Shown here piece by piece: positions 6,768 to 61,925 of a stretch of DNA of 64,000 bases (its first letter is position 1; the number at the start of each line of letters is the position of its first letter). The translations under genes and the position numbers were made by a program. Location of the stretch: contig PSRM01000068.1 in NCBI GenBank assembly GCA_003176045.1, positions 60,084-124,083 on the forward strand, in the 5' to 3' direction. This stretch comes from Verrucomicrobiota bacterium (lineage in GTDB: Bacteria; Verrucomicrobiota; Verrucomicrobiia; Limisphaerales; UBA8199). The notes beneath the pieces are model-generated. The model had not been told where the DNA came from and did not search any database. It saw only the letters and a list, made by a program, of their open reading frames with translations.

Positions 6768-6772
6768 TGGGT

Positions 6773-26870: not shown

Positions 26871-27039
26871 ACGTCCGGGCGTCGGTTTGCTGTTCGCATC
26901 TCGCCGTCGATCTTGAAGAACCGCATCTGCGAGTTTTTCAATTCTTAGCGAAGCAGAATTCAGCAGTGGCACAAGCTCGCGCAACCTTGCGTGTCACCAT
27001 GGCGGATATGGTACGGACGCGCTTAGCGCTCGTTTCTGC

Positions 27040-27954: not shown

Positions 27955-29396
27955 AAATCAGCGCCATCCGGGACCTCCTCGTCGGATCAACTGGCCTTTG
28001 GTTGGCAATGGGCGCGGCGATATTCCTACTGACAGCTTTGGCTATTGCCAGCCGATTCGGGTCTTCCCATCGGTCCGAAATCGTGGCCCGAATAAAATGG
28101 TTTAGTTGGGATCGGCGCACCTTCTGCCAGCATTTCCTGATCACCGGGGCCACGGGTTCTGGAAAAACGCTCGGAGGCATCTTGCGCCTACTTTTCCAGG
28201 TCTTCAAACACGAACCTCGATTCGGGGGACTTTGTGTGGATGTCAAAGGATTGCTTCATGAAAAAGTTGTGGAAATGGCGAAGCATTTCGGGCGGCCTGA
28301 CGATGTGGTGGTGCTTCAAGTGAGATCGAACTCAGCAACGACCGAGTGGAGGCCTGTGAATCGGTTGAATCTGGTGGGTGACCGCTCAATTCCCTTTGGT
28401 ACTTATGCGCGCTGCGTGGCGGATACCGCCGCTGCTTTGGGGAACCGCCAAGAACAAACCTTTTTTCGTCGAGCCGGCCAAATCCACATCGGAAAGGGTT
28501 TGGAAGCTCTGCACGCGCTCGGGTACGAAGTCACGTTGGAGAACGTCCACAACATGTTGGTGAATCCAGGGGACACGGCCCGAGTCGTGAAGGAATTAGG
28601 CACTAAGGAAACGACCCGTGGATTGGCCGAACACTTCCAGAATTACCTCGCTCAACCGCCTGAACAGTTGGCGGGCATCGTTGGTACCGTGGGCAATTAC
28701 CTCCATTACTTCACGGAGCCGGCGATAGCCGAAGTGTTCTGCCGGGATAGCACTTTTGCATTGGAGGACGTGGACAAAGGAAAAATAATTTGTCTGGCAC
28801 TGCCGCAAAAGTATCAGACGGAGCGTCGTTTTGTCGGGACCTTCCTGAAGCTTCTTTTCTTCACACATGCGCTATCACGGTTTGACGCGGACGCCAAACG
28901 GCGTCAGTTGCAGAATATGCTTCTCTTTCTCGCCGACGAGTACCAGCAATTTGTCACGGCCAGCGAAGATGGGCTAAGCGACCATTCCGTAATTGATCTT
29001 GCTCGCGAGGCGCTGATGGCGGTGGTCGCTGCGACACAGAGCACAACCTCATTCGTTCCAGCTCTCGGCACGGACCAAGCCAAGGTGCTGACACTCAACT
29101 TGAGGAACCGGTTAATCTTCACTTCAGCCGATGAAGACGACGCAAAGGCGGCGGCAGAATTCCTGGGCAGGAAAACGGTCAAGACGCGATCTTGGACATG
29201 GAGCAACGGAAAACGTTCCGAAACCTTTACTGAAACCGAGGACTATCGAGTTAAACCCCATCAACTGCGCAAGCTCCGGAAGCATCAGTGCATCGTCGCC
29301 CATGCGAACGGCCGCTTTCGCAAGTTCACACTGCCTCCGGTGCAGCCGGACGGGACTGTGCCGAACTGGTACCGCCGTTCCTGGTTCACCCTCTGA
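27951..29396 (+). CDS. virD4: Type IV coupling protein (VirD4/TraG/TraD family)
   Basis: N-terminal TM segment, Walker A ITGATGSGKT, Walker B LLFLADEYQQF. Its start overlaps the AAA+ stop (ATGA). Confidence 0.85.
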   Translation: MKISAIRDLLVGSTGLWLAMGAAIFLLTALAIASRFGSSHRSEIVARIKWFSWDRRTFCQHFLITGATGSGKTLGGILRLLFQVFKHEPRFGGLCVDVKGLLHEKVVEMAKHFGRPDDVVVLQVRSNSATTEWRPVNRLNLVGDRSIPFGTYARCVADTAAALGNRQEQTFFRRAGQIHIGKGLEALHALGYEVTLENVHNMLVNPGDTARVVKELGTKETTRGLAEHFQNYLAQPPEQLAGIVGTVGNYLHYFTEPAIAEVFCRDSTFALEDVDKGKIICLALPQKYQTERRFVGTFLKLLFFTHALSRFDADAKRRQLQNMLLFLADEYQQFVTASEDGLSDHSVIDLAREALMAVVAATQSTTSFVPALGTDQAKVLTLNLRNRLIFTSADEDDAKAAAEFLGRKTVKTRSWTWSNGKRSETFTETEDYRVKPHQLRKLRKHQCIVAHANGRFRKFTLPPVQPDGTVPNWYRRSWFTL

Positions 29397-29487: not shown

Positions 29488-32235
29488 ATGATCACCGGAA
29501 AACCACAGAAGAACTTGCGCGACGCGAAGGAGTATTTCCGGCAGCATTTGGCTCAAGGGGACTATCATTCGGAAAGCCAAAGAATCCAAGGAATGTGGTT
29601 CGGGCGAGGAGTTGCCCGCCTGGGACTGAATCCTGCAGATCGAGTGACGGCAGAACACTTCGAGCGCCTTTGCGACAATCTCCATCCATTGACGGGGGAA
29701 AGGCTCACGGTCCGTAAGAGAGTCGTTGATCGCCGCATTTTCTACGATTTTACCGTCAGCGCGCCCAAGAGCGCTTCAATAATGGGCCTGATTATGCAGG
29801 ATAGTCGAATTCTCACAGCGCATGAGGAAGCGGCCAGTGAAGCTATGGCGCAAATGGAAAAGGTGGCTGCCGCCCGCGTACGGCAGGGCGGCCAACGGTC
29901 CGAACGCACAACGGGCGAAATCGTTGCAGCCATCTTTCAGCATGACTCTTCGCGAGCACTGGATCCGCAACTGCACACACATTTCATAATTTGGAATGCC
30001 ACATTTGACCCCGTGGAGAAACGTTGGAAGGCGCTCGAAACGATGGCGATGTTTGAAAAAATCAATTTCTTCACCGAAGTCTATCGCAACACTCTGGCGA
30101 GGCGATTACGCGAATTCGGCTATGGAATCCGGAACACTGCTCACGGATTTGAAATCGAGGGCGTCCCTCAGGGAATAATTGAGCGATTCAGCAAACGGCG
30201 TCAGCAGATTTTGGCTGCTGAGTCGCAGGCAATCGAGGCGGTGAATAAAAAACTTCGTGAAGCGCTTGAGCAAGCTGTGCGCGACAGCGTCGGACAACCA
30301 GCGGAGGTGCGAGAAAAAGCAGAGAAAGCCCTTCGCGAATTTAAGCCCATCACAAAGCTCACAAACACAGGTCGAGCAACCTTGGCTCACACTACCCGCC
30401 AGTGGAAAGACACAAACCTGGACCCGGCCGAGGTGCTTAGCTATCAAAAATCTCAACTGTCCAGCGATGAAATCGTGCAACTCCAACGGTTAATGCGGCC
30501 AGATGCGACCGCCATCAAAATTAAGCCCGAATCTATCTCCGCTAAGCAGGCAATTGATTATGCCCGCGACCACTTGTTTGAACGAAATAGCGTCGTTCCC
30601 ATCACGGAATTGTTGCGCGAAGCCTTAACATTTTCGCGCGGCCGACTTGAGTTGCCCGAGCTCGAGGCGGAGGTAGTGAAACGAGATGATTTTCTTCCAG
30701 TCGGTGAGTTTTTGACGACCCGCGAAACCCTGGTCGAGGAGCGACAAATGATCACTATCACGAATGAGGGGTTGGACCAACTCCGGCCCATCAACCCGAG
30801 TTACGTGCCGACCGCAAAACTGTCCGTTGAACAGAATCAAGCAGTGCGATTCTTGCTCAATTCTGCCGATTTGGTGGTCGGCTTACGCGGTGGCGCCGGG
30901 ACCGGCAAGACTGACCTGCTACATGAATTGGTTCGCAGAATAGAGCAACGCCACACTGCTGTTGTTCTCGCGCCGACAACGTCGGCGGTTGAAGTCCTTC
31001 GGAGAATGGGCTTTAAACGCGCTGCAACTCTCCAGCGATTTCTCCAGGACGAAGCGTTTCAGCACGATGAAAAGGGGAGCGTGTTGGTTGTTGACGAGGC
31101 GGGGTTACTTTCCCGGCGTGATATGCTCGCTCTTCTCAATATTGCCCATCGCTTGGGGTCTCGACTGATTCTGAGCGGTGATACGAGACAACACACCGGA
31201 ATCGAAGCGGGAGATGCGTTGCGTTTGCTCGAAGAGCGAAGCGCACTCCAAGTTATCGGTGTCCGGAAGATTCGTCGCCAAGTGGAGATTGAATACCGGG
31301 AAGCTATTGGTGAGCTCGCGAGAGGCGAAGGAGCAAAGGCCTTGGCGCGACTGGACAGGATCGGGGCTGTGTCAGAAATCGAAGGAGACAAACGGTATCG
31401 CCGCCTGGCCGAAGAATACATTTCATCGATCAGGGCCGGCAAAACGTCTTTAGTTGTAAGCCCGACATGGCGTGAAATTGAACAGGTTACCCAGAGCATT
31501 CGAGAGCAGATGAAGGAACAAGAACTTCTGGGGACGCGCGAAAGCACAATTGTGGTACTTCGCGGATTGAAGTGGACAAAAGCGCAAAAGCGTGACCTTC
31601 GCAATTATCGGCCTGGGTTGGTCCTCAACTTCTATCGAAATACTGCTCGCTTCGTAAAGGGTGACACTGCGGAGGTTATCAAGATGGAGCGCGACGCGTT
31701 GTGCGTCCAACTTCGGAATGGCCAACGCACGGAGGTTACCCGGAAACAAGCCGATTGCTTTGAAGTCACCGAAAAGGTGGATTTGAAGGTCGCGCCGGGG
31801 GACCGCCTGTTGCTTCAATCCAGCGAAAAGGCGAGAAGACTGTTCAATGGTCAAATCGTCACGGTCAAGGAAATCGCTCCGAACGGTGTAATCTTCTTGT
31901 CAGATGGGCGAGAAATACCGGTAGGATTTCGGACGTTCACGCACGGCTATTGCGTCACGAGTTACGCGTCACAGGGACGAACAGTGGACCATGTGTTTGT
32001 GGCAATGGATTCCCATTCCTTTCAGGCGGCTAGCCGCAATCAGTTTTATGTGAGCACTTCGCGTGCGAGGGAACGAGTCAAGATTTACACTGATGACAAA
32101 GAGTTTTTGAGGATGGTCGTCAATAAATCTGGTTCCCGGCTCTCTGCGATCGAATTGGCGGAAAGCCGACGCTTGGCGACCCGTGAATCAACCACCAACC
32201 GGCAAAGTGTAACGTTGGGAGTTGCGGCAGCCTGA
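29488..32235 (+). CDS. traI: MOBF relaxase (TrwC/TraI type) fused to a RecD-like helicase
   Basis: N-terminal TrwC domain with YDFTVSAPKS and the His triad HDSSRALDPQLHTHFIIWN. Helicase Walker A LRGGAGTGKT. C-terminal YASQGRTVDHVFV. Confidence 0.9.
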   Translation: MITGKPQKNLRDAKEYFRQHLAQGDYHSESQRIQGMWFGRGVARLGLNPADRVTAEHFERLCDNLHPLTGERLTVRKRVVDRRIFYDFTVSAPKSASIMGLIMQDSRILTAHEEAASEAMAQMEKVAAARVRQGGQRSERTTGEIVAAIFQHDSSRALDPQLHTHFIIWNATFDPVEKRWKALETMAMFEKINFFTEVYRNTLARRLREFGYGIRNTAHGFEIEGVPQGIIERFSKRRQQILAAESQAIEAVNKKLREALEQAVRDSVGQPAEVREKAEKALREFKPITKLTNTGRATLAHTTRQWKDTNLDPAEVLSYQKSQLSSDEIVQLQRLMRPDATAIKIKPESISAKQAIDYARDHLFERNSVVPITELLREALTFSRGRLELPELEAEVVKRDDFLPVGEFLTTRETLVEERQMITITNEGLDQLRPINPSYVPTAKLSVEQNQAVRFLLNSADLVVGLRGGAGTGKTDLLHELVRRIEQRHTAVVLAPTTSAVEVLRRMGFKRAATLQRFLQDEAFQHDEKGSVLVVDEAGLLSRRDMLALLNIAHRLGSRLILSGDTRQHTGIEAGDALRLLEERSALQVIGVRKIRRQVEIEYREAIGELARGEGAKALARLDRIGAVSEIEGDKRYRRLAEEYISSIRAGKTSLVVSPTWREIEQVTQSIREQMKEQELLGTRESTIVVLRGLKWTKAQKRDLRNYRPGLVLNFYRNTARFVKGDTAEVIKMERDALCVQLRNGQRTEVTRKQADCFEVTEKVDLKVAPGDRLLLQSSEKARRLFNGQIVTVKEIAPNGVIFLSDGREIPVGFRTFTHGYCVTSYASQGRTVDHVFVAMDSHSFQAASRNQFYVSTSRARERVKIYTDDKEFLRMVVNKSGSRLSAIELAESRRLATRESTTNRQSVTLGVAAA

Positions 32236-37991: not shown

Positions 37992-38204
37992 TTACTCCTG
38001 CGCCGCCGAGGCCGAAGATTCTGACGGCGGCGCACTCGGTTTCAATGGACGGCCATGCCGTGCGGCGTGTTCCCGCACAATCTGATTGATGCAAAAACTC
38101 CGGTTGCGGTCATCTCTTTCTGCCAACTCCTGCAAATACTCGAGGACGACCAATTCCAATGTGACACCCGTTGATCTCGTGAAACGCCGGCGTCGTGTGC
38201 TCAT
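37992..38204 (-). CDS. Ribbon-helix-helix (CopG/Arc-like) DNA-binding protein
   Basis: Trimmed to MSTRRRRFTRSTGVTLELVVLEYLQELAERDD (GGAGGG upstream). The beta-strand/helix pattern matches the RHH fold. Confidence 0.6.
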   Translation of the reverse strand: MSTRRRRFTRSTGVTLELVVLEYLQELAERDDRNRSFCINQIVREHAARHGRPLKPSAPPSESSASAAQE

Positions 38205-39394
38205 GCTTCTGTCCCTCCGTGAGACGGTCGTAACACACCATGCCCTGTCATCACAAGGCACCTCGCAATGCCGTTCGGTTTCATAACAGATCTCGATTCT
38301 CGATTTGTCATCCGCAGCCCGTGAAGAATCGGTTGCAACAAAATTCGTGCATCTCGGTTTACCCAAATCGAAACCGTGTTAGAACTTCACGCAATGGGAG
38401 GTTCTTGATCCCAGCAACGTCAATGTGCGTGCCAAACGCGTTCTCGACGTTCTTTGAGATGGGCTTGAGCGCCCGCAAAACCGGACTTACCATCCGGCGA
38501 AGGGGACGGATTTACCACCCGTCATGCTCATGTCCCGTAGAGCGTGGTGCCACGAGAGTGGCCCGCCACGTTCGAGAGAGGCTTCTGGAAGTAATCTTTG
38601 GCTACCAACCAAAAGTAATCTCCAGATTCTATCTCATGCAATCGAAGTGAAGTTCGCGCGTGCGAATGCGGGCGAGCGGGACATGCTTCGTCGTGAAATT
38701 CGGCGGAGTTGTCAGATTCAAATGGGTGAGCAGTGATTGAGAGGCGCTGCAAATCCTTCGGCGGGATTCGGACCACAATCACGCATCGCGTGATCAATCG
38801 GGTGTAAAGCTCGGCAGGTTCGTTTAACGCACGCTGGCGTCGGGAGCCTCCCGGTGGTGACATCGAGGAGCCGAAAGCGACAACTTTCGGGGTTCTGCTC
38901 AAAGCGCAGACCGTGAAAAGCTCAACGACGAGAGGGGCGGAAGCCCTTGCCAGTAAGCAACAGCAGAGACGGAGCCGAATCGGGAAAAACCTGCACAGGA
39001 TGGATAAATCGCCGCTTCTGTATTCGAGCGATTGAAAACAGTGTGTGGTGGCACACTGGCGACTATGGCAAGGCGGGAGTCTTGCGCATACCTGGCAGGT
39101 CTGGACGATAAATACGTCCTTACCAACGTGACTGCTGTAGCGAAGAGTCTGAATAACCGTGCAAGGAGTTTTGGCTTCCGGAGTGGTATCCGGTGCCGGT
39201 TTCGTCAACCGGTGGTTCAAACGCCAACTCTGATGAGAGTGTCTCCAGTAGGAATGCGCCCCCGCTCGCAAGAGCAAAGGTGCAACGCAACTTCAGCAAG
39301 GCAGTTGAAGCGGCGTGTGCGTGCAACGGGTGGTACCGGGCACATTTGCACACACGAAAGAGACGACGGGATATACCTATCTCAAAGAGGTCGT

Positions 39395-39425
39395 GGGCAG
39401 GTGGAGTTCAAACCTTCACCTGCCC
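39395..39425. other. Strong 12-bp hairpin in an ORF-poor region
   Basis: GGGCAGGTGGAG-TTCAAAC-CTTCACCTGCCC, with one G-T wobble. Confidence 0.5.
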
Positions 39426-39828
39426 ATTTCCGTGGAAGAGAACTGCGTTCAAGCCGGCGCAACCTGGGGACAGGCAGCGCTCGTTTGAAGGCAGCAGCCG
39501 TATTGGAGTGATTGCGATGACAAGCTGAATCAAAGAGGTTTTATTGCAGGCAACCGCTATTGATTGCGCAACTGCAATACAAGGAATACAGCGCGCGCCG
39601 GCGTCAACCCAAAAGACGAAAACGACGGCGCCGTCTGTGCATCGAATGAAGTTAGGTTTTTGTGAGCCAGACCATTAGGCATCCATGAGGTTTGCCACGC
39701 GAGGTTGCTCGGCTTGTAGCCGCTACTTGCAGCATGGCATTGAGGATTTTGGGCTTTCGGAGGGTTTGCGCCCAAAAAAATGCAACCTCCACTTTTGACG
39801 CCGCCATAACATCGGTTGGGAGACTAAA

Positions 39829-40461
39829 ATGACCTACCGATGTGTGGCGGCATCAGTTGCTGGGTTCGTGCAACAAGTGGCCGTGGGCTACATCGCCCAC
39901 GGTTACTATTTTTACGTGGCGGGTCGGATTCCGAATGGGAAAGAACCGTCCAAAACTGACTCAAAGATCATCGCCCAATACGGCATTGATGTCGCCAAAT
40001 GGACGAGGTCACGGCGTAAGCGAGCGGGCCAGGCTAATGTCCAATATCTGCGTTACGACCAATTCTACGTAATACTCGCGACTCACGGTGAACACGCGTT
40101 CTTCGTAGAGGAAGGGGACCGCATAAGGGATATACGCCAGCATCCGCTCCGATTCTTTGATTATTCGATTGGATGCCGAAAGTCCCGTCGAGGAGGTGAA
40201 CTGCACCCTTCGGTCCGGATTTCCCGGAAAGCTTTTCGCCAGTTGAAAACTCGGTTTGAGAAATCAGCGGTCAGTTCCACTTCTGACGAGCTATGGCAAG
40301 CACTGCGAAACATGCCGTTCGAACCTTACGCTCCGGTCCGCGATCAGTTCAGGATCCTCCTGCGGGCAGTGAATCGGATGCGAAAAACGGCGGGGCTGGA
40401 GTTAGTCCCTTGGACCGCTTGCCGCTTGCGCCGGTGTCCGGTAAAACCCTTCTCAGGTTGA
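39829..40461 (+). CDS. 210-aa hypothetical protein, paralogue of 46618..47208
   Basis: GGGAGA SD-like sequence upstream. Shared blocks are listed here with the 46618 copy in brackets: YFYVAG (FFYIAG), IRDIRQHPLRF..YSI (ARDMRQHPLHCMGYTI), RKTAGLELVPW (REAAGLPLVPR). Confidence 0.6.
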   Translation: MTYRCVAASVAGFVQQVAVGYIAHGYYFYVAGRIPNGKEPSKTDSKIIAQYGIDVAKWTRSRRKRAGQANVQYLRYDQFYVILATHGEHAFFVEEGDRIRDIRQHPLRFFDYSIGCRKSRRGGELHPSVRISRKAFRQLKTRFEKSAVSSTSDELWQALRNMPFEPYAPVRDQFRILLRAVNRMRKTAGLELVPWTACRLRRCPVKPFSG

Positions 40462-40611
40462 CGCCGCGACCAAGCAGACTATCGCAGCCGGCTCCAGGGC
40501 TCCCGTTGTGGCGGTGGTCAAGAGCCCCTCGCCGGTCGGCGATGCGTCTCGCCACTCGATCATCAACCAGAAGTTGTGTGGATTTTGGTGCCGCCACGAG
40601 CGCCTGGTTAT

Positions 40612-42408
40612 TCATAGGCTCGCTATAACGGTCTCCTTACCGAGGGCAGCGAGGCGTGCCTCCACCGCAGCCAGGTCAACCTGAATCCCCTTCGTAACAG
40701 CCCCGCGAGGCGGGTCGTCCACAAGCTGTGCAACCCTCGCGCCAAGCCGGGACACCTCTGCAAGCAATGCCGCGACCTGCATATCGTGCCGATCAACCGC
40801 CGAGTGGCTCTCGTAAACCCACTCATTTTCCAACAAATCGAACCACCCGGATACCGCTTCGGGAAGTTCAACGCGCGCCACGGACCTGTCGGTACCCCGT
40901 CGCTCCCCGCCTCTCGCCACAATTGCTCGTCTGAGTGCCGCGCGAGAATCGTTCTCGCCGTGAACCAGAAACACGCGCTTCAAGGGCCTGTACGGGTGAC
41001 TACTGTTCTTCCGCATAAGGAAATCCAGCAACCCGTTCCGGTCCGCGTGACCCGAGAAATAGTCGGAAAAATCTACGATCCGTGCCTGCACCTGGCCGTT
41101 AGATAGCGCCCAAAAGGCCGGATCTATCACCGCGGCCGCGTTAACTGCCCGCCGCTTCAGTTCGGCCCCAGGCGTTCCGGCCCCTTGGTATCCCGTAAGT
41201 ACCACAATCGTCCTTTCCGATGGCAATAGATTCTTCAGGTGTTCCGTAACCCGTCCGCCGTTACACATGCCGGCGCCAGCTATCACAATCCTAATGGCTG
41301 CATTCGTTCTTGAACCGTCAATGGTGTATGATAGTGAATAGTTTCTGCCTTGCTTGCTCCCGCCTGGAGGACAAAACAAAGTCGTGAGCAACGCGCCCGC
41401 CTCCTCCTCGGTCCCGGGGATCCTGCTTTGCAGCGCCGCGTTGCGATAGAAAGGCCTTCCATTTGGACGCGACCGAACCAACTGCTTCGCGTATACGGCT
41501 CCATACTTTCTTGCGAGCGGCGAATCCACCAGAATTTCGGCCACAAGCCGCGCCTCGGAGCCGGCACTTGGGAACCACGTCTGCCGCTCATCAGGAGTAA
41601 GCGCTACGTCCAACAGGTAATGCAAATCCATGACCAACTCTTGCATCCGCTGCAGGGTAAAGCAGGGGAACACAACAGTTGCTCCCACTCCGAGTTTGGC
41701 CGCCTGGCCCAACAGTCCCTTTAGGGCACTAATGCGACTCCAGAAGTCCATATATTTCTGGTCGCGATCGCGACCGCCGTACGTTGCCTCGCAGACGATA
41801 TACTCTGCATGAGTGGACGGGTACTGCCGCCCATTCAAAAGGGCCTGGTAAGGATTTTCATCAGTGTTGCATCCGATGTCTCCTGAGAACACGATCGTTC
41901 GACGCTCACTCGGCAAAGCTACGCTCCAGTCCGAGAACTGGAACTCGAAACCGACTGAACCCAAGATGTGCGAGCTCCTGATGAAAGCGCACGTCAGGTC
42001 CTTCTGGATCGGGAAGAATCTTCCAAACTCAAAACGGGGATGCTCATCCGGGCACGCAAACTCTAACCGGTTCACATCTGCTACCGAAAAACCGCAAGTG
42101 CCCAGTTCTGCCACATCCGTCAGCGCATGTCGTGTTAAGTCCGCGGTTGCGCGCGTGCAATATATTCTGCCTAGGAAACCCTCTTTCACGAGCTGGGGGA
42201 GCAAACCACAATGATCCAAGTGCGCATGAGTCAAAAAGACGGCACTTACTCCGCTTGGCTTGAAGGCGAACGCAGACTCACCAGCCTGCCGGGCTGCCTG
42301 TGAACCCTGAACCGCTCCGCAGTCCACTAGGTAATAGCAGCAGCCGTGATTCAGCAATATGCACGATCCCGTCACGCTCCCTAGAGCGCCAATAAATCGC
42401 ATTTTCAT
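40612..42408 (-). CDS. MBL-fold beta-CASP family nuclease (RNase J/CPSF73/SNM1-like) with a C-terminal extension
   Basis: FLTHAHLDHCGLLP (HxHxDH), a later GDIG motif, C-terminal YFSGHAD and FLVHGE. AAGGAG lies 6 nt upstream. Confidence 0.8.
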   Translation of the reverse strand: MKMRFIGALGSVTGSCILLNHGCCYYLVDCGAVQGSQAARQAGESAFAFKPSGVSAVFLTHAHLDHCGLLPQLVKEGFLGRIYCTRATADLTRHALTDVAELGTCGFSVADVNRLEFACPDEHPRFEFGRFFPIQKDLTCAFIRSSHILGSVGFEFQFSDWSVALPSERRTIVFSGDIGCNTDENPYQALLNGRQYPSTHAEYIVCEATYGGRDRDQKYMDFWSRISALKGLLGQAAKLGVGATVVFPCFTLQRMQELVMDLHYLLDVALTPDERQTWFPSAGSEARLVAEILVDSPLARKYGAVYAKQLVRSRPNGRPFYRNAALQSRIPGTEEEAGALLTTLFCPPGGSKQGRNYSLSYTIDGSRTNAAIRIVIAGAGMCNGGRVTEHLKNLLPSERTIVVLTGYQGAGTPGAELKRRAVNAAAVIDPAFWALSNGQVQARIVDFSDYFSGHADRNGLLDFLMRKNSSHPYRPLKRVFLVHGENDSRAALRRAIVARGGERRGTDRSVARVELPEAVSGWFDLLENEWVYESHSAVDRHDMQVAALLAEVSRLGARVAQLVDDPPRGAVTKGIQVDLAAVEARLAALGKETVIASL

Positions 42409-42420
42409 GACGCTCTCCTT

Positions 42421-44289
42421 TCATTGGTTAGCTGGGGCACTCGCTTGCTGGCCGAGATAGCACAACCTGAATCCGATTTTTTTGCCTTTGTATCGCCCAG
42501 TACTGCTTGGGGAAAATGGATGCGCCGACGGTGTGCGAATTGGATTGCAGAGCCCAGTCAGATAAAGCGTATTGACGGCGGCGCCCGGCTTATCGTTTAG
42601 CCACTCGCCAAAATGATTAGACACGAGAAACGCAAGCCCCTGCGGCGAATGCTTCCAGACAAGAGCCTGCGGGAGGAAGCGATACCTCATCGTGAAGATT
42701 CCCTCACCGGGACCCTGACTCTCTTCGCTTCTCATGGCCTTGAAATCGTCCGGGCCAAGCGGGCGCAGATTGTTGAATGGAAAAATCGAACCATCCGCCC
42801 GCAAGAATTGGCATAACCTGTCGTGCTCGACACTGTAAAAATAAGGATTCTTGGAAGCATCAGGCGGCTGAATCACCGCGCGAGCAATTGAATCGTATTC
42901 ACATTCAGTCAAGAGCCGCACCGGAAGTTTCTTTGTCTTGCTGGCCCAGGCTGCGTAAGCATTTGCGTCGTACCAAGTCGCCGCCGCCGGAAGAGAGCGG
43001 TCTTCGTCCGAATTAACGGTCGTCCAGTCATCTGAATCCTGAGGCCTCCGGCTATACCTCGCATAATCGGCGTTCTCCTGCATGAAAGCAGCGAATTCCG
43101 CGATTGTGACCAGGTTCGATACGTATAGCAGAGCTCCACCGACGTCGTAAGGAATGTAACCGTTCATCGGGCCGGACTCAGCTCGCGGAGCCTTATACTT
43201 TCCAGTTCCAAGCAAATAATTCCTCAAGATGATATCCGTCCCCGGATAATTTTTTGCGTCTCCCAGATTGGTATAGTAGTAGATCTCCGAGTGGTGCCGA
43301 TCTTCCTCCAGCCAGCCGCCATACTCAAAGTACAACCATCGCCTGAAGTGATAAGTGTCGTTTGACTTTGGCACATCACTGTTGCGCAGGTGAGGCGCAA
43401 AAGGGTTATGATCGAAGGGCTCATCTCGCAAACCCGGAAAGACGAAGTCGTACGCCCCGTCCCTCCCCTTGAGGAAGACTAAACACTTGTTGTAAGGCAC
43501 AACGTCCACCCACCCCTTCCCGAGCCTTTCGATCCACATCCGAAAAATCCTCGCCACCTCTCGCATTCTTTTCTCGTCCTTTTGGAACATGTCGGCGGGC
43601 TGAAGTTTGGTCTTGTACATGCAGGGAACGAATTTCAATGCGTACTCAGCGCCCTCGAAAGCCAGGAGCTGATCACCAAGCAGATTTCCGCATCCAAAAC
43701 GGATGGAGTAATCACATGCAGCCACTGCGGCGTCCAGCAGTTGTCGGCCCGATTCCGAAGACTCTCCGCCGGCCGCGGCAACCTCCTTCATCACGCTCTC
43801 AAAAGGCAGGCTAAACTCGACATCATAATCAGGGTGCTCACGCCACGGGTTCTTGTGGAAATACCGATTATTGAGCTCGAACCAATCAACGTCGTAGCCG
43901 GTAAATATCCGGCGAGGAAACAGTCCGCCCGGCAAAAAGATCCTGTCGGCCACTTCTCTCGGTTTGAGCGAGACCATGTCAAACCCAGGATCGGTCCTGT
44001 TAATCAAGTCCTTGCGGAAATTGAGCCCATTCCTTTCCATGAAGGGCACCAAACGATGTTCGTATTCCTGCCTATATCCGGCAAAGCCTCCGTTGAATCC
44101 AAGTCTCTTGGAAATATGGTTCAGGGCGGTTGTCTGCTTTAAGGTCTCTCTGTCCTGGTAATCTGTCCGCGTAAGCTTTGCAGCCCGCTTTATTGCATCG
44201 GGGGTGACATCACTCAGCGGAGCAATGTGGAAGTTGTCGAAGGGGATATAGCGAGCAGGCGTGACTGCAACAGTGCGATTGCTATGCAT
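42421..44289 (-). CDS. 622-aa protein with a C-terminal FGE-sulfatase (SUMF1-like) domain and an unknown N-terminal 400 aa
   Basis: ATWYDANAYAAWASKTKKLPVRLLTECEYD, NHFGEWLND, and a terminal KIGFRLCY, matching the formylglycine-generating-enzyme fold pattern. Confidence 0.7.
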   Translation of the reverse strand: MHSNRTVAVTPARYIPFDNFHIAPLSDVTPDAIKRAAKLTRTDYQDRETLKQTTALNHISKRLGFNGGFAGYRQEYEHRLVPFMERNGLNFRKDLINRTDPGFDMVSLKPREVADRIFLPGGLFPRRIFTGYDVDWFELNNRYFHKNPWREHPDYDVEFSLPFESVMKEVAAAGGESSESGRQLLDAAVAACDYSIRFGCGNLLGDQLLAFEGAEYALKFVPCMYKTKLQPADMFQKDEKRMREVARIFRMWIERLGKGWVDVVPYNKCLVFLKGRDGAYDFVFPGLRDEPFDHNPFAPHLRNSDVPKSNDTYHFRRWLYFEYGGWLEEDRHHSEIYYYTNLGDAKNYPGTDIILRNYLLGTGKYKAPRAESGPMNGYIPYDVGGALLYVSNLVTIAEFAAFMQENADYARYSRRPQDSDDWTTVNSDEDRSLPAAATWYDANAYAAWASKTKKLPVRLLTECEYDSIARAVIQPPDASKNPYFYSVEHDRLCQFLRADGSIFPFNNLRPLGPDDFKAMRSEESQGPGEGIFTMRYRFLPQALVWKHSPQGLAFLVSNHFGEWLNDKPGAAVNTLYLTGLCNPIRTPSAHPFSPSSTGRYKGKKIGFRLCYLGQQASAPANQ

Positions 44290-44474
44290 ATGATCTTTAA
44301 GTTCTTAACGGCCATTATGCCCTCCGTGATGGTTTCAGAACTTGAAGAACAAACTATGCAATCTGCTTAACTGCGAACTGTCTTAACGATTTGTTTGCAC
44401 CCCGGAGGGCATCATTTGCAACCGCTGGCCGTTAACCACCGCCGAAAGTTTCGCACAGGCTCAGGGATTTGCAA

Positions 44475-44504
44475 GTGCATTCCGGACCGGTGCATTCCGG
44501 ACCG
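44475..44504. repeat. Perfect tandem duplication of the 15-mer GTGCATTCCGGACCG
   Basis: Read directly: units at 44475-44489 and 44490-44504, between the RadC stop and the FGE-domain gene start. Confidence 0.8.
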
Positions 44505-44543
44505 GGGATCGGGTCGGTTTCTTGTATCAACTCGGCACAGGCC

Positions 44544-45164
44544 CTAATAAAAATAACCGAGCTCTCTTAAGCTGACCCAATCTCTTGCCTGCGCGTCAGT
44601 TCTCCGGCCCAGGATGACATGATCGAGCACCTCGATGTGGAGCAGTTGACCCGCTCTGATCAAATCGCGGGTGACTTTGATGTCTGCCTCGCTTGGAGTC
44701 GGATCGCCACTGGGGTGGTTGTGCGCCAGGATGATCGCTGCGGCTCGGCGACTGATTGCCCCAAGAAATACCTCGCGCGGTTGTACCAGAATTGTATCAA
44801 GGGTTCCTTGCGAAATTGTCTCCATGGCGATCAATCGTCTGCGAGTGTTCAGATACACCACCTGAAAATTCTCGACTGTGAGCAGGCGATTCGGCTCCCG
44901 CAATAAATCGGCGATCCGATCGGGCGTGTCTAGCAGGGGAGCCTCGCCGTAGGTTTCGCGGCTCAAACGTTGCGCAAGCAGAAATGCCGATTTTATCGCC
45001 GCAGCCTTTGATTTTCCGATGCCTTTGACGGCCTGCAGATCATCAAATGAGGCCTGGGCCAGATTTGTGAGTCCCCCATATTTTTCCATTAAAGCGTCCG
45101 CGGCGGGCTCACCGGCGAGAGTGGAGAGCAAGTCTTTGTTGTTGGCGTGTTCAAAAGGTTCCAT
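44544..45164 (-). CDS. radC: RadC-like JAB/MPN domain protein
   Basis: HhH-like N-terminus (LQAVKGIGKSKAAAI) and the JAMM motif ILAHNHPSGDPTPSEADIKVT. Confidence 0.9.
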   Translation of the reverse strand: MEPFEHANNKDLLSTLAGEPAADALMEKYGGLTNLAQASFDDLQAVKGIGKSKAAAIKSAFLLAQRLSRETYGEAPLLDTPDRIADLLREPNRLLTVENFQVVYLNTRRRLIAMETISQGTLDTILVQPREVFLGAISRRAAAIILAHNHPSGDPTPSEADIKVTRDLIRAGQLLHIEVLDHVILGRRTDAQARDWVSLRELGYFY

Positions 45165-45580
45165 TGGTTCCTCCCGTGAACGCGGACTCTAACACCGTTT
45201 CCGTTGGCAGGGAATGCCCGGAAGCCTGACATCATCTTGTCAAAAATTGCGAATCAGAACGGGGACTTAACCGAGACTCACGCTCTCGTGATCAGCCCAA
45301 GACCCCGGAGTGCCCCAACCCGTTGACTTGGAGACAGTGTTTGCGGCATTAATGTCATTGGGTAGAAGGAGGGTTTTCTGTCGCGTTTTCTGCGGCTGGT
45401 TATGAGTCGAATGCAACGCCTTTCCTAATTTCAATTTCCCTTCGCAACCGCTCGTCCTTGAACGGCGGATTGTGAATGGAAGCTTCGATCAAGAGCTAAA
45501 GTGTGCCGCTATGCGCTTGGTCGGGACAAAAACAAAGCAAGCCGAGTAAAACCGGACTGCGGCACTGGAAAGAGCAATGC

Positions 45581-46438
45581 ATGAGACTGAACGAACAAAC
45601 GTCGAACTTTAAGGCGGTCGCCTTAGGGGACGACATGCTCCGCAGCCAGGCACCGAGCATCTTTGCAACGGGGCCAATGCAGGGCGTCAGCAGCCGTTAC
45701 ACATTCGTGCCGACTTCTCGAATCGTTTCGGGATTGAGGGAACACGATTGGGTTCCGGTGGAAGTGGAAGAGCAACGCATCCGCAAGGAAGACAGGCGGG
45801 GTTTTCAGAAGCACCTGATACGGTTTCGTCTTGCCACGCAGATGCAGACGTTGGCCGAATGGAACGTGGAACTGGTCCTGCTCAACTCGCACGATCGGGG
45901 TTGCGCATATCAACTTCACGCGGGGATCTTCCGGCGAATCTGTTCCAATGGATTGGTGATGAGCGAAGGGTCATTTGAGGCCATTCGCTTTCGTCATTCC
46001 AATTTGGAAGCGGAGAAAGTTGTTCAAGCGAGTTTTCGCCTGCTCGACTACGTTCCGAAGGTCGGCGAGATGGTCAATCGGTTCCGCGCCCGCGCTCTTG
46101 ATTCCCAGGAATCAACCGCGTTGGCCGGCCACGCACTCTTGTTGCGCTATGGCAGCATGGAGCGCGCACCCGTCGAAGCTGCAACGCTCCTGACCTCGCG
46201 TCGTTCGGAAGATGAGGGAACGGATCTGTGGACAACCATGAACCGCGTTCAAGAGAACCTGATTCGTGGTGGCGTTTCCGATTTCCGCAAGGACCGTCGT
46301 GGCCGGCTGCGATCGGTGAGGGCAATACGAGGCATTGATTCCAAAGTCAATTTGAACAAGGGACTTTGGAGCCTGGCTGAAAAACTGGCCAATGGTCAAC
46401 CGCTGGATGATGCCGAGCGGGTTGCACTTGCGAATTGA
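45581..46438 (+). CDS. DUF932 (DUF945) family protein
   Basis: Trimmed to MRLNEQTSNF. Motifs: APSIFATGP...SSRYTFVPT, FQKHLIRFRL, LLNSHDRGCAYQLHAGIFRRICSNGLV. Confidence 0.85.
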   Translation: MRLNEQTSNFKAVALGDDMLRSQAPSIFATGPMQGVSSRYTFVPTSRIVSGLREHDWVPVEVEEQRIRKEDRRGFQKHLIRFRLATQMQTLAEWNVELVLLNSHDRGCAYQLHAGIFRRICSNGLVMSEGSFEAIRFRHSNLEAEKVVQASFRLLDYVPKVGEMVNRFRARALDSQESTALAGHALLLRYGSMERAPVEAATLLTSRRSEDEGTDLWTTMNRVQENLIRGGVSDFRKDRRGRLRSVRAIRGIDSKVNLNKGLWSLAEKLANGQPLDDAERVALAN

Positions 46439-46617
46439 AACCGCCGAAGGTTATTCCCAAGGTTTCTTCTACATGGCTTTTGAGGACGTGTGCCAACAAA
46501 CAATCCTCCACCAAACTGAGGGATCTCCTCAGAAATTGCCTGCTGCCACGATGAAAAGGGCTTTGAAGCTGGTTGAATAATTGAACCAGAATTAATGATT
46601 TCCTGGACCTATTTCCT

Positions 46618-47208
46618 ATGATCAAGGGTTTTATCGTCGAGTCCCGCGAGGAATGCATGCGTGAAATAACGGATGTGCTAATTCCGAACAAATTTTTCTT
46701 TTACATAGCTGGACAGTGTCGGCGCGAGCCGCCAGCAATAGAGGATGAAAACACTCTGCAGATTTTTGAAGCCGCCGTGTCGAAGCTCGGCGCGACTGAG
46801 TTCGAAGCCGAATTGCGGTTTTATCGGTGGGGCGCGTGGCGGATTGTCGCGGGGACTGAAAGAGTTGTTCCCGTCTTTAAAGAGGCGAGAGCGCCGGCGC
46901 GTGATATGCGACAGCACCCGCTCCATTGTATGGGGTATACCATCAAGGCCATTCAGCTAGGCGACGAGGAACATTACCAAGCATACGTTGAAATCACTCG
47001 CGAGTTTCTCGGGCTTTTTGAACCTCGCTGGCTCAATTTCGCGCTCAAATGGTCCGTCGAGCAGATTGCAAAAGATTTTTCACAAGTAGATTACGTTAGA
47101 TATCCGCAGGTTCTTGCGGAGGTTGAGAGAATTCTTGCTGTTATCAACGAGCGGCGAGAAGCGGCGGGATTGCCACTCGTTCCGCGCGATGCGTTGTTCA
47201 TTACCTGA
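46618..47208 (+). CDS. 196-aa hypothetical protein, paralogue of 39829..40461
   Basis: See 39829..40461. The N-terminal length before the FFYIAG block is the same in both. Confidence 0.55.
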   Translation: MIKGFIVESREECMREITDVLIPNKFFFYIAGQCRREPPAIEDENTLQIFEAAVSKLGATEFEAELRFYRWGAWRIVAGTERVVPVFKEARAPARDMRQHPLHCMGYTIKAIQLGDEEHYQAYVEITREFLGLFEPRWLNFALKWSVEQIAKDFSQVDYVRYPQVLAEVERILAVINERREAAGLPLVPRDALFIT

Positions 47209-55300: not shown

Positions 55301-57255
55301 AATCGAGCATCAATTTCCGGCGCAGTTAAGTCTGTCGGCTGCACACTCTTGAGTGCGTTGACATTTCCCGAAAATTGCTCGTCAGCCAGTGCGGCTGCTT
55401 CGGCTGCTGTGAGTTTGGCGCGAACATTCCCGGATAGGTAATCGTCTTCCGTTTCCCAGCGGTTCGTTTGTGGATTAAGAAAAATCGCGCCTTTCAATTC
55501 TGGCAAAAACTCGGAAGCTTTGCGGTGGAGCAGGCCCGCGAGGTAATCTAGGTCAACGCAGCCGCGTTCGTTCAGCGTAACGAGCAACGCTTCATGTGGA
55601 GCGTCGGTCTGGACTGTGGGCCTCTTTTTCTGGATTGTTCGCTCGCGAAAAATAGCAGCCTTCGCCGCACGGCCGGTTTCTTCGTCATAGAGCTCCAACG
55701 AAAGGAGAAGCGGCAGGTCAGGATCGCCGCGAAAAGCCGACGTGTTCGCGCGTTCTGAAATTGGGCCGCACCGGGCGACAAAGCTATCATAACTTTGATT
55801 GAGCTGTTCGCGCGCGGCCAGCACCTCGTCATCCGGCGTGCCATTGAGTTGCGAAGAAAGACATCGCCTTACGGCATCCCGCACGCGAATGAGTCCTCGA
55901 ATTCTCCGGGCAACTTGTGATGAGAGGCCGGTCAAAATCCGCAACGAGTCGCCATCCCGCACTGCGAGCTGATCATTTACGACAGTATAAGCGTTCGGTT
56001 TTATGTGTTCAGGAGCAGGGAACGTCTGCTCCAAAGTTGGCTTGGCGACTCGCCGTGCCTCTGGCTGAAAGACATCTTTGGGTAACAGGGCGATAACTTC
56101 CGCCAGTTGTTCGGTGAGGCGGCGGCCGTTGGGGGCGAGTGTAGGTTCGCCACGCGCATACATCCGACCCTCAAGTCGCATCTCGCCAAGCATCATTTCT
56201 GGTCGAGCGGCGAAGTACTCGTTGACGGGGATGGTCTCCCCCTGCGAGTTAGTTATCTCGCTCAACTCCTTCCAGGCCGGTCCTGTTGGTATTTCGCCCG
56301 GAATCCTTTTGCGGAACATGATAATGTCCGTGGTCACCTCCGTGTGCGCATTCCGTTTGAACGCGTCGTTTGGTAAACGAATGGCACCCAAAAGATCAGC
56401 CTGCTGTGAGACGTATTCTCGAAGCGCCGCATCCACCTTGTCGAGGGTTCCACGTGACGAAACGAACAGAATCAGCCCGCCCGGTCGGACTTTCTCCAGT
56501 GCGGCAGCGAAGAAGTAGTCGTGGATTACGAAGTTCCAGGACTTGAATCGCGGATCGAACGGCTTGTAATCACCGAATGGAATATTCGAGATGGCAACGT
56601 CATAAAAACCGTCAGCGAGTTTTGTTTCTTCAAATGGTTGGCGTCGAATGTCAGCATCGGGGTAGATCAATTTTGCCAGTCGGGCGGTTATGGAATCGAT
56701 CTCGACACCTGTGATGAGAGATCGTTTGTGCATTTCTTCGGGCATTAACCCGATGAAATGGCCCAAACCGAGAGCGGGTTCGAGAATCCGTCCATGTGTG
56801 AAACCAAACCGTGCCACTGCCGAATACATTGAGCGAATGACATCTGGCGCCGTGTAATGAGCGTTGAGGGTGGTCGCGCGAGCGGAGTCGAGTTCATCCT
56901 CCGACAGCAACGATTCAAGCTGCTCCCGCTCTTTCCTCCATTGTTCATTCAATGAGTCAAAAACCTGCGGCAACCCGCCCCAGCCGACGTAGCGGATCAA
57001 AGTTCGCTTTTCCTGATCGGTGGCAGGTCGGGTATCGGCTTCAAGTTGCTTGACAAGTTCGATGGCCCGCAGGTTGTCGCGGCATTTTTGCTTTAGGGAG
57101 CCGACGCCTAACCTATCTGCGTCTGTGATCCTATAGTTCCGCTGGTTCCGCAACGGCTCTGGTTCACTGCTCGGCGGGGTTTGCGAGGCCGATTCGTCTG
57201 GAACTTCTATGTCTCGGGCGGGAGGAAGATGTATCTCTCCCGAACCATTTCCCAT
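52378..57255 (-). CDS. Giant N6-adenine DNA methyltransferase plus SNF2/DEAD helicase fusion (P1 DarB-like architecture)
   Basis: MTase motif I LEPALGLGHFIG and motif IV AISNIPFGD. Helicase Walker A HVVGAGKTF, DEAH box VDEAHYFKN, motif VI EQREGRILRQGN. The start is set at Met95 of track ORF 52378..57537; the true start is uncertain. Confidence 0.85.
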   Translation of the reverse strand: MGNGSGEIHLPPARDIEVPDESASQTPPSSEPEPLRNQRNYRITDADRLGVGSLKQKCRDNLRAIELVKQLEADTRPATDQEKRTLIRYVGWGGLPQVFDSLNEQWRKEREQLESLLSEDELDSARATTLNAHYTAPDVIRSMYSAVARFGFTHGRILEPALGLGHFIGLMPEEMHKRSLITGVEIDSITARLAKLIYPDADIRRQPFEETKLADGFYDVAISNIPFGDYKPFDPRFKSWNFVIHDYFFAAALEKVRPGGLILFVSSRGTLDKVDAALREYVSQQADLLGAIRLPNDAFKRNAHTEVTTDIIMFRKRIPGEIPTGPAWKELSEITNSQGETIPVNEYFAARPEMMLGEMRLEGRMYARGEPTLAPNGRRLTEQLAEVIALLPKDVFQPEARRVAKPTLEQTFPAPEHIKPNAYTVVNDQLAVRDGDSLRILTGLSSQVARRIRGLIRVRDAVRRCLSSQLNGTPDDEVLAAREQLNQSYDSFVARCGPISERANTSAFRGDPDLPLLLSLELYDEETGRAAKAAIFRERTIQKKRPTVQTDAPHEALLVTLNERGCVDLDYLAGLLHRKASEFLPELKGAIFLNPQTNRWETEDDYLSGNVRAKLTAAEAAALADEQFSGNVNALKSVQPTDLTAPEIDARLGSTWIPAQDVQIFTAELLGEEGISVSHAPQLGLWVIRGGYGARFSVANTTEWGTDRRSAIELIEDALNLRVPTVYDHDPDTDRDVINGPATEAARDKQEKLKERFKQWIWRDDERRERLVRKYNDEFNHTRLRTFNGDHLTLPGASPAITLRPHQKAAVWRILQTPNCLLAHVVGAGKTFAMVAAAMELKRLGLARKTLFAVPNHMLGQFSSELLALYPGANILVATKDDFEKDKRKTLMSRIATGNWDAVIVTHSGFEKIPVARATQEEFFKANLRELALAIEQQRKDGDSRIVKALERSKKQLETKLKELSADEKKDDGLTFEELGVDRIFVDEAHYFKNLFYVTKMTRIAGLPQTASQRAFDMFLKVGHVQRINGGGGVVFATGTPIANSVAEMFTMQRFLEMSLLKGQSVAHFDSWAATFGEPVTALELSPDGSGYRLHTRFARFINVPELMQMFRQVADIQTQEMLKLPVPDLHGGKPTVVSAPCSPELKEIVQSLVERAEALKTGSVDPREDNMLLVTTDGRKAALDLRLHEASLPDHGDSKINQAVRQIERIWRDTMNNRSTQLVFCDLSIPTQNKGFSVYEDMRDKLILAGVPAGEIAFIQDYESDAAKLTLFKDVRAGKIRVLFGSTQKMGTGANVQERLIALHHLDAPWRPADVEQREGRILRQGNSNAEVQIYRYVTEESFDAYMWQVLETKAKFISQVMTGESDLRRIEDIDGAALTYAEVKAIASGNPLVIEKARIDAEVGRLSRLHCEHQETMFKLRTRVRHLADEIPAHEKRLEAVRQDLKVREDTNGDKFMMILEGQEIRDRGIAGELLIRRAEKMRGGRSERQIGKIAGFDLFVADNFMQGPEIVIKGATTYVAKVTDTAHGTIRSVEHTIQHLEELAATIGQNIADTQKRLADSRAQVDAPFEYADRLAALVQRQREIEDELDLTKSQTSGQLEPQQAANGPDQQGEGKSSDEPG

Positions 57256-60424: not shown

Positions 60425-60457
60425 GCGATCATTAACACAATACTGTCAGTCTGCCGG

Positions 60458-61855: not shown

Positions 61856-61925
61856 ATCACAACATGTACTGATTGAAGCCGCATCTCAAGCCAAAACCAT
61901 AAAACCATATCTGTTGTCGCTAAAT

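Follow-up and report, generated by a model that had tools for sequence, protein, structure and literature searches.

The modular pair of a sensor and an effector is a known kind of bacterial conflict system, and several of the parts seen in such systems are relevant here. Domains related to the formylglycine-generating enzyme (FGE) act as C-terminal sensor modules or as diversified binding modules in multi-domain conflict proteins, including bacterial proteins of the signal transduction ATPases with numerous domains (STAND) or nucleotide-binding leucine-rich repeat (NLR)-like type (PMC7159879; PMC12803255). Prokaryotic viperins (pVips) have been described together with nucleotide kinases and paired with the toxins HicA and RelE (10.1101/2023.12.08.570793). 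In the literature searched, these are the only viperin partners, and Cas14 of the type VII CRISPR-Cas systems is the only immune nuclease of the beta-CASP family. Here, we examine a two-gene locus in a stretch of 64,000 nucleotides from a Verrucomicrobiota bacterium (contig PSRM01000068.1, positions 60,084 to 124,083), which we call the window, and in which a gene for a protein with an FGE-like C-terminal domain (A) is followed by a gene for a beta-CASP metallo-beta-lactamase (B). We consider it reasonably probable, judging from sequence comparisons and structure models, that A is the sensing or regulatory subunit and B the ribonuclease effector of a mobile defence module that travels here as the cargo of a conjugative element.

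The first-pass annotation of the window had proposed a pair of adjacent genes separated by 12 nt, with an AAGGAG site in the gap, an HxHxDH motif in the second protein and RadC next door, and had considered the combination of a sensor with a nuclease to be undescribed. The open reading frames (ORFs), the junction and the motif are all as it said, RadC lies directly upstream of A, and the combination is found neither in PADLOC nor in the literature searched. The gap reads TGA AAGGAGAGCGTC ATG, in which AAGGAG abuts the stop codon of A, and A and B share the same reading frame. The annotation had also asked for the linkage of the two families to be verified in other genomes, and it is found there. 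We gathered 96 loci with relatives of A from genomes, metagenomes and exact-match look-ups, which were reduced to 61 at 85% identity, and the downstream partner was defined as a gene on the same strand lying -60 to +400 nt from A. A beta-CASP gene follows A in 11 of these 61 non-redundant loci, and the junction TGA AAGGAG(C/A)GC(A/G)YC ATG is kept in 9 of the 11. Such a recurrence of the order A then B, mostly with one and the same 12-nt junction, shows that the arrangement is not a matter of chance. Furthermore, the pairwise identities of A and of B co-vary (r = 0.95 over 36 pairs), as is expected of two genes that are inherited together. The linkage of A and B is real, but it is clade-specific. 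In the near-identical loci L048 and L052, the usual 12-nt gap is present in L052 and a gap of 89 nt in L048, probably through an assembly or frameshift difference.

A first tblastn search with the window proteins against 26 genome loci had recovered B in 1 of 17, and this pointed to alternative partners. Indeed, the gene most often found downstream of A is that of a radical S-adenosylmethionine (SAM) protein of about 312 aa, a pVip (17 of the 61 loci). NYN RNases, either of 225 aa or in a 494-aa form, occupy this position in 9 loci and a B12-binding radical-SAM protein in a single one; 16 loci have another gene or nothing recognisable, and in the remaining 7 the contig ends too soon for the partner to be determined. 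The pVip identity is firm (NCBIfam NF038283, 335-348 bits for a cutoff of 180; PADLOC pVip, about 320 bits), and the B12-binding partner matches the PADLOC candidate PDC-M51A with 490 bits. The relatives of A that stand next to a pVip align with the window A over their full length at about 28% identity, and they are found directly upstream of pVip genes in cultured Pseudomonas, Janthinobacterium, Aquitalea and Comamonas. Where A lies upstream of an RNase, the junctions are tight or overlapping (-37 to +24 nt). In a neighbour-joining tree of A, viperin partners appear in at least 3 separate clades, NYN partners in at least 3 and beta-CASP partners in 2. Partners have thus been swapped around a constant component, and A as the constant partner of viperin, NYN, beta-CASP and B12-radical-SAM enzymes is more informative than the pair from which the analysis started. 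In one locus (L055:522-6714), the gene 172 nt downstream of an A homologue encodes, in place of an enzyme, an AAA_16-TPR protein of STAND type with 1385 aa.

This places the locus close to the pVip loci, without making it one of them. Relatives of A precede pVips directly, and the A family connects viperin chemistry with RNases as the pairs of pVip with HicA and of pVip with RelE do. The window, however, contains no viperin; a beta-CASP RNase stands in its place. As for the partners, a protein with an FGE domain was not found in the literature searched as a companion of viperin, of NYN or of beta-CASP proteins, unlike the described kinases, HicA and RelE.

We now turn to A itself. Its family comprises 49 clusters in a word-index search and 216 representatives at E<=1e-30 in a profile search that covered 1.84 billion representatives, clusters being taken at 50% identity. 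Nearly all members measure 550-650 aa, and none of the top 150 profile matches, the longest of which has 740 aa, is a fusion of A with an effector domain. The family is spread patchily over Verrucomicrobiota, Pseudomonadota, Campylobacterota and Desulfobacterota. The AlphaFold2 (AF2) model of the window A has a predicted local distance difference test score (pLDDT) of 89.6 and a predicted template-modelling score (pTM) of 0.86. A had been annotated as an unknown 400-aa N-terminal region followed by an FGE domain, a description of which the first half stands and the second stands in part. For the N-terminal ~380 aa, no relative was detected by profile search of the PDB or by Foldseek against PDB and BFVD, a comparison that the annotation had itself suggested, and this domain is therefore a candidate for a new fold or function. 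In a 36-sequence alignment, its residues H21, Y225, W260, D281, P307, Y320 and E335 are invariant, and D311, R317, E328 and H332 nearly so. The C-terminal region matches the Pfam FGE-sulfatase profile PF03781 with 33.8 bits (cutoff 23.3) over aa 394-471 only, that is, profile positions 44-124 of 255 or one third of the model, which supports placing A in this fold superfamily and nothing narrower. The same stretch has profile matches to OvoA and EgtB (46 residues aligned to OvoA). Beyond it, the signs of an FGE-like domain are the GFRLCY motif and weak Foldseek matches to EgtB-IV, OvoA, PvdO and a cyanophage SUMF-like protein.

The sequence motifs of this domain (TWYDANAYAAW, LPVRLLTE, FGEWLN and GFRLCY) resemble the W-x-D-A-x-A-Y...LP(V/T)..E and GFR fold motifs of FGE/SUMF1 and of EgtB/OvoA. 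The catalytic residues do not follow. In human FGE, the catalytic cysteine pair consists of Cys336 and Cys341, shortly before the GFR motif. No conserved Cys-x4-Cys precedes GFR in the 36 aligned A sequences: the corresponding segment reads S-T-G-K-Y-K-S-K-K-I, the sole near-invariant cysteine of this region is the one within GFRLCY, and a semi-conserved single cysteine (SLC) is substituted in many members. A DinB-like iron domain is also missing. Membership in FGE/SUMF1 was rejected on account of the absent cysteine pair and of the absence of a sulfatase gene nearby; membership in EgtB/OvoA was rejected as well (ovoA_Nterm, 18 bits for a cutoff of 400, and an N-terminal fold without PDB match). 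No Pfam sulfatase was found in the 39 larger ORFs of the window that were scanned, a set that stops short of five ORFs at 57.8-64 kb, and a six-frame search of the window for the C/S-x-P-x-R signature gave no match in a plausible gene. Near A, there are no ergothioneine or ovothiol genes. A is thus neither a formylglycine-generating nor a sulfoxide-synthase enzyme, because it has no cysteine pair, no sulfatase signature accompanies it and its OvoA score is far below the cutoff; a genuine sulfatase-maturing enzyme with its sulfatase close by, which the first-pass annotation had named as what would overturn its proposal, was not found. For these reasons, a housekeeping explanation, according to which A would be a sulfatase-maturing or EgtB/OvoA-type enzyme that happens to lie beside a general RNA-processing beta-CASP RNase, is largely refuted, and we give it hardly any credit. 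What speaks for it are the names that NCBI gives to the relatives of A (formylglycine-generating enzyme family, SUMF1/EgtB/PvdO family nonheme iron enzyme, or simply hypothetical) and the wide occurrence of generic beta-CASP RNases of about 470 aa; the distribution of A, which is patchy and island-like with swapped partners, and the membership of B in a distinct clade seen in defence contexts add to the case against.

The FGE-like domain of A has a second feature, which is a hypervariable and indel-rich insert. Over aa 471-545, the mean column identity is 0.27 and the occupancy 0.66, compared with identities of 0.48-0.50 in the flanking FGE core; the insert is wholly missing in one subgroup (P0021/P0026/P0028), and the pLDDT is low at aa 501-531. 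With its FGE-like domain at the C-terminus and other modules N-terminal to it, A follows the "strict syntax" of the FGE-type sensors found in Avs-like proteins and in the ternary VMAP/iSTAND systems (PMC7159879), and it shares with them a variable region and interchangeable effectors. Unlike them, it has no NTPase, its effector is a separate gene, its N-terminal domain is unrelated to known modules and no diversity-generating retroelement accompanies it: the latter was checked in L029, where a reverse transcriptase gene lies 8 kb from A, and no template/variable repeat was found. STAND membership was ruled out, as Pfam, NCBIfam and PADLOC give no match to P-loop, NACHT, NB-ARC, AAA or AAA_16 domains.

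The conservation of the N-terminal domain can also be read in another way, in which A would be an enzyme with a catalytic N-terminal domain. It would share a single nucleotide or RNA pathway with its partner, for instance by making, modifying or delivering the substrate of the latter, and would not be a sensor. H21, Y225, W260, D281, Y320, H332 and E335 are invariant across sequences of 27-100% identity, the conservation of this domain (0.33-0.44) is about like that of the FGE core, and all the partners act on nucleotides or RNA. We nevertheless regard A as an enzyme as very unlikely: Pfam, NCBIfam, the PDB profile search and Foldseek link A to no known enzyme, and the chemistry of the partners (a radical-SAM dehydratase, metal-dependent RNases, a B12 methylase-like protein) is too heterogeneous for a single substrate.

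The nature of B is much clearer, and its annotation as a beta-CASP nuclease holds. B matches Lactamase_B (46 bits), Beta-Casp PF10996 (58 bits) and RMMBL PF07521 (38 bits), all above their cutoffs. Motifs 1-4 of the metallo-beta-lactamase domain (MBL) and motifs A, B and C of the beta-CASP domain are all present and align to the Thermus RNase TTHA0252; D29, H61, H63, D65, H66, H147, D177, E207, H454 and H483 do not vary in either of two sets of 25 and 30 homologues, whether these are linked to A or not. Motif C is a histidine in the RNA-type enzymes, and B conforms to this. The best PDB matches by sequence are TTHA0252 (1e-37), Cas14 (1e-28) and archaeal and eukaryotic CPSF73-type enzymes, and the best NCBIfam matches are Cas14 (181 bits) and aCPSF1 (144 bits). 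The AF2 model (pLDDT 88.8, pTM 0.89) leads to the same proteins: Foldseek against the PDB gives TTHA0252 first (E = 3e-32, template-modelling (TM) score 0.83 normalised to TTHA0252), and the top 50 matches are all RNA-cleaving beta-CASP enzymes (TTHA0252, Cas14, Ysh1/CPSF73, aCPSF1, FttA, IntS11 and RNase J), with no DNA nuclease of the Artemis/SNM1 type among them. B is therefore an intact beta-CASP protein with a two-metal active site and an RNA-type fold, and it is predicted to be a ribonuclease. The degradation of cyclic nucleotides, which the first-pass annotation had suggested as an activity to look for, is unlikely, given that the relatives by sequence and by fold are all RNA-cleaving; an Apyc1-type phosphodiesterase was also discarded as an identity for B, which has a beta-CASP domain and no PF23023 match at E<=0.01, such matches being weak and confined to relatives.

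With TTHA0252 and the CPSF73-type RNases, B shares all seven motifs, the fold and the RMMBL domain. It exceeds the 431 aa of TTHA0252 by about 170 aa and has inserts as well as a C-terminal GWFDL motif followed by a helical hairpin, and its clade is found in defence-island operons and not in housekeeping contexts. This clade has members of about 590 aa and is marked by the GWFDL motif (aa 521-525). In a set of 25 sequences, W522 and F523 never vary, and in one of 30 sequences, W522 and L525 hardly do. Cas14 is second to TTHA0252 among solved structures, by sequence and by fold, and it too is a beta-CASP RNase recruited by a separate specificity component, as we infer for B. The specificity of B would, however, come from a protein, A, and not from a CRISPR RNA (crRNA). 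Cas14 membership was ruled out (NF045584, 181 bits for a cutoff of 800, the best stretch aligning residues 1-267 only); no Cas5 or Cas7 genes lie beside B, the neighbours being RadC, DUF932 and unknowns, and there is no repeat array within 38,000-46,700. Relatives of B that stand without A, and that are 38-43% identical to B, occur in operons resembling restriction-modification (RM) or bacteriophage exclusion (BREX) systems, and a beta-CASP nuclease as a component of such systems was not described in the literature searched. One of these loci (P0085) has an MmeI/Eco57I methyltransferase, the beta-CASP protein and GmrSD, beside Fic, PIN and a NERD-kinase; another (L035:4924-12592) has DUF1156, the beta-CASP protein and DUF499, beside an SNF2 helicase.

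The pair is preceded by a third conserved part, a non-coding leader upstream of A. In the clade of the window, it measures about 165 nt and is kept in every locus, 13 of which were aligned, though the A proteins are 45-60% identical and the flanks unrelated. It contains an invariant AGTTCTG[AG]A at -54, and this box is found 42-55 nt before the ATG of A in 21 loci, out of 30 occurrences in all on the plus strand of 989 kb. RNAalifold predicts two hairpins, with compensatory changes in 8 of the 10 pairs; 86.9% of the cells are paired, against 71.6% in shuffled alignments (0/500 as high) and 28-48% when the partners are slid, figures to be read with the fact that the structure was derived from the very sequences tested. 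A covariance model of this leader (R2) gives one match per locus in 16 loci, each ending at the start of A, including one locus with A and without B, and none upstream of the beta-CASP genes that stand without A; the match in the window scores 125 bits. This leader may be a promoter/operator or a structured 5' untranslated region.

The viperin and 494-aa NYN clade has a different and much more strongly structured leader of about 155 nt, with a consensus structure of -32.5 kcal/mol and 30 pairs. In this one, an invariant UCUCCA is predicted to act as an anti-Shine-Dalgarno sequence by pairing with the UGGAGA Shine-Dalgarno; the closing pair of this helix is intact throughout, with a change from C-G to A-U in 8 sequences. 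Its model (R1) abuts A in 34 loci, including loci outside the model and loci with NYN or no partner. This leader is a candidate new riboregulator of the viperin operon. Neither leader matched Rfam at E<=10, and both are candidates for new cis-regulatory elements in immune operons. As R2 and R1 match next to A whatever the partner, the leaders travel with A and not with the effector.

Several smaller observations concern the window leader. A 33-codon upstream ORF (MAVKNLKIICIAIALLQSRLLAISPSTTSTLLR) at 44214-44315 (-) follows GGAGG and overlaps the start codon of A in another frame; A has no obvious Shine-Dalgarno sequence of its own, and in the alignment of the leaders the G-run is retained. 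A box that resembles part of the leader is found at 44415-44433 and again at 45441-45459 (TTTGCAACCGCTGGCCGTT / TTCGCAACCGCTCGTCCTT), the second copy lying between RadC and DUF932, upstream of RadC. The box may serve these neighbouring genes as a common operator or promoter, and R2 scored no second copy. An exact 15-nt tandem duplication, GTGCATTCCGGACCG x2, is located at 44475-44504, between RadC and the leader and outside the region of the R2 model.

The leader also bears on another explanation, that of a toxin-antitoxin-like addiction or abortive module. B, NYN or viperin would then be a growth-arresting toxin and A its large neutralising partner, the N-terminal region of A would autoregulate the operon at the palindromic leader, and the pay-off would be the stabilisation of the mobile element. 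Its inverted repeats (TTGCA...TGCAA) change along with the A lineages, A is located upstream of an RNase with the tight junctions given above, pVips do pair with the HicA and RelE toxins, and the pair is present on conjugative elements. Moreover, FGE-like proteins have been reported as toxin-neutralising immunity proteins of type VI secretion systems (bioRxiv 10.1101/2021.05.21.445229). Against this, an antitoxin of 600 aa in which a hypervariable insert binds ligands would be atypical, Pfam detects no DNA-binding domain in A, viperin is not a classical toxin, A stands without a recognisable partner in 16 loci, and many loci lie on chromosomes, with no obvious element in need of stabilisation. 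We therefore think such a module unlikely, keeping in mind that it overlaps mechanistically with a sensor-effector defence cassette, because many toxin-antitoxin systems act in defence.

The surroundings of A vary from one locus to the next, and besides the partner, no neighbour is conserved across the collected loci. A is found next to a reverse transcriptase and a helicase-MTES-WGR protein, a transposase, AAA_15/HNH genes and giant surface proteins, a single-stranded DNA-binding protein (SSB) with response regulators, or DndB genes, and tRNA or tmRNA genes are close to three viperin-type loci. The 148 nearest neighbours of A include PADLOC matches to PbeA (3 members), NsnB, HEC-03B, AriA, MkoA, PtuA, GajA, AbiLi and DpdE, and Pfam matches to HsdR, integrases, TniQ, SRAP, RadC and DUF932. 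A constant component with swappable enzymes, variable neighbourhoods rich in defence genes and mobile genetic elements (MGEs), and the identities of the partners together point to a conflict system. Along with the patchy spread, these are the features of a modular two-gene sensor-effector system.

A second conjugative context is provided by L048 and L052:1786-9608, in which a TrwC relaxase (39% identical to that of the window), RadC, A and B follow each other, and RadC is found near A also in L058, L087 and L100. Together with the block ArdC-ParB-ParA-Rep-like...B-A-RadC-DUF932-DUF6166-SNF2 of the window, which is typical leading-region content, this is what an anti-defence or establishment function would predict: expressed early after entry into the recipient, B would degrade RNAs used by host immunity, be they crRNAs or the guide RNAs of retrons and other systems, or else nucleotide signals, and A would recognise the target. 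The weak Pfam matches of B relatives to Anti-Pycsar Apyc1 go in the same direction; they do not extend to the window B, whose beta-CASP insert is absent from the cyclic-nucleotide MBL phosphodiesterases. Viperin, which is seen with A more often than any other partner, is a bona fide antiviral effector, and most A loci are not conjugative. No A homologue was found in PLSDB (72,556 plasmids) or INPHARED (50,697 phage genomes), and a single IMG/VR contig carries one. An anti-defence function is thus distinctly unlikely in our view. The first-pass annotation had placed the pair in the presumed leading region; the pair is not specific to such a region, since it is also found in chromosomal islands beside the reverse transcriptase/helicase, transposase and AAA_15/HNH genes.

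Several points weigh against the defence cassette that we favour. Neither A nor B is covered by a PADLOC model (no match for either window protein in PADLOC-DB v2 at E<=0.01, and none for A of L007, L008 and L101, while in other loci the partner genes match pVip or PDC-M51A), so that the assignment to defence is one of guilt by association. The defence matches among neighbours are a qualitative tally, uncorrected for the genomic background. In 16 of the 54 assessable loci, no partner is recognisable, and A may act alone there or with a distant gene. The invariant His, Asp, Glu and Tyr of the N-terminal domain could equally mark an active site, and the setting of the window and of L048/L052, beside RadC and TrwC, is also typical of establishment and anti-defence genes.

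As a defence cassette, the leader, A and B would form one mobile three-part unit directed against phages or other MGEs. A would be the constant sensor or regulator, whose non-catalytic FGE-like domain, with its hypervariable insert, would bind an invader-derived ligand, and whose N-terminal domain would couple this binding to the partner enzyme, by docking and activation or by release from inhibition. B would then cleave transcripts of the invader or, as an abortive response, RNA of the host, and the leader would keep the expression of the pair in check. In other lineages, the same A scaffold would drive viperin, with its chain-terminating 3'-deoxy-3',4'-didehydronucleoside triphosphates (ddhNTPs), NYN RNases or the B12-radical-SAM enzyme. 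As all these partners act on RNA synthesis or stability, a common output is suggested, which would be the shutting down of transcripts. The defence role, the assignment of sensor and executor and the RNA target are predictions of this scheme, built on the sequences, the models and the gene contexts.

A broader proposal is possible, though we hold it only tentatively: A would represent a hitherto unrecognised and widespread family of immune sensors or regulators (at least 216 clusters at 50% identity, in several phyla) that gates interchangeable RNA-directed effectors under novel structured leader RNAs. Neither the A family nor its leaders appear to have been described, and the same holds for its association with viperin, NYN and beta-CASP enzymes. 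In the 2021 work of Bernheim et al., pVips were reportedly expressed on their own. If the proposal is right, many bacterial viperins are the output arm of a sensor-controlled and riboregulated system and not stand-alone constitutive enzymes, and the cassette of the window is the RNase-output version of this system, riding on a conjugative element. The regulation and targeting of prokaryotic viperins at their native loci are largely unexplored, and A upstream of pVip in cultured genera offers a testable handle. The pairing of A with a beta-CASP RNase in the lineage of the window would also be a second route, independent of CRISPR, by which beta-CASP nucleases were recruited to immunity, after the type VII Cas14. 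Finally, a module of this kind next to the RadC and DUF932 establishment genes bears on how defence cargo is to be separated from anti-defence genes in leading regions.

Table 1. Features of the locus, of its leaders and of the surrounding element (window positions unless a locus is named).
Feature	Position	Strand	Description
Gene A	42421..44289	-	622-aa ORF, ATG start; constant component of the A family
A N-terminal region, aa 1-380	43150..44289	-	family-specific; pLDDT mostly >90
A C-terminal domain, aa 381-622	42424..43149	-	FGE-sulfatase-like (C-type-lectin-fold)
A hypervariable insert, aa 471-545	42655..42879	-	indel-rich, within the FGE-like domain
A-B junction	42409..42420	-	12 nt with AAGGAG ribosome-binding site
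Gene B	40612..42408	-	598-aa ORF, ATG start; beta-CASP metallo-beta-lactamase, predicted Zn-dependent ribonuclease/effector
B motif 2, HxHxDH	42211..42228	-	H61-A-H63-L-D65-H66
B C-terminal helical hairpin, aa 541-597	40618..40788	-	DSSP on the AF2 model; after GWFDL
Conserved non-coding leader of A	44287..44455	-	R2 match; two hairpins, conserved boxes, G-run
R1 leader, examples	L008:9672-9823, L011:9747-9904, L071:5695-5853, L074:3905-4057		and 30 further loci
RadC	44544-45164	-	Pfam; directly upstream of A
DUF932	45503-46438	+	beyond RadC
TrbI, VirB4-like and other type IV secretion system (T4SS) genes	12.8-20.6 kb		
Type IV coupling protein (T4CP)	27951-29396		
TrwC relaxase	29488-32235		
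ArdC, ParB, ParA, 623-aa Rep-like protein	32.6-38 kb		

Judged by its gene content, the window is a conjugative element (Table 1), which additionally has two DUF6166 genes and encodes an SNF2 protein of 1719 aa. A search of 40,300-45,400 for sigma-70 promoters returned 0 sites, and a terminator scan remained at background level. The tRNA scan found no tRNA gene in the window, and the Rfam scan of its whole length gave nothing at the gathering threshold; a match to Hammerhead_HH10 was dismissed as chance (16.9 bits against 75). The block made of B, A, RadC and DUF932 is flanked by two paralogous ORFs, at 39829-40461 (+) and 46618-47208 (+), on the strand opposite to B and A. They share 24% identity (E = 8e-13) and the motifs FYVAG/FYIAG, RD(I/M)RQHPL and AGL.LVP; Pfam, NCBIfam and PADLOC gave no match for either of them, and a PDB sequence search with the first of them was negative. 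Between the Rep-like gene and this first ORF (orf210), about 1.8 kb (38000-39800) contain only short, overlapping and implausible ORFs. This stretch may be an origin or another non-coding region, and the Rfam and tRNA scans were negative there.

Other parts of the window also resemble conflict systems. At 23172-27954, between the T4SS block and the coupling protein and relaxase genes, a 1232-aa TPR-CHAT protease protein is encoded together with a ClpB-like AAA+ protein (AAA_2 plus D2-small), which look like further cargo of this type within the transfer region. A defence-like cluster lies at 1903-8632 and consists of an Mrr_cat nuclease (1903-2772), an SMC/AAA_23 ATPase (4415-6661) and an AIPR abortive-infection protein (6773-8632). 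At the other end, from 57000 to 64000, the GC content falls from about 0.54 to 0.48, with five ORFs of 238-465 aa following on one strand. The element may end here, or this region may be a module that was acquired separately.

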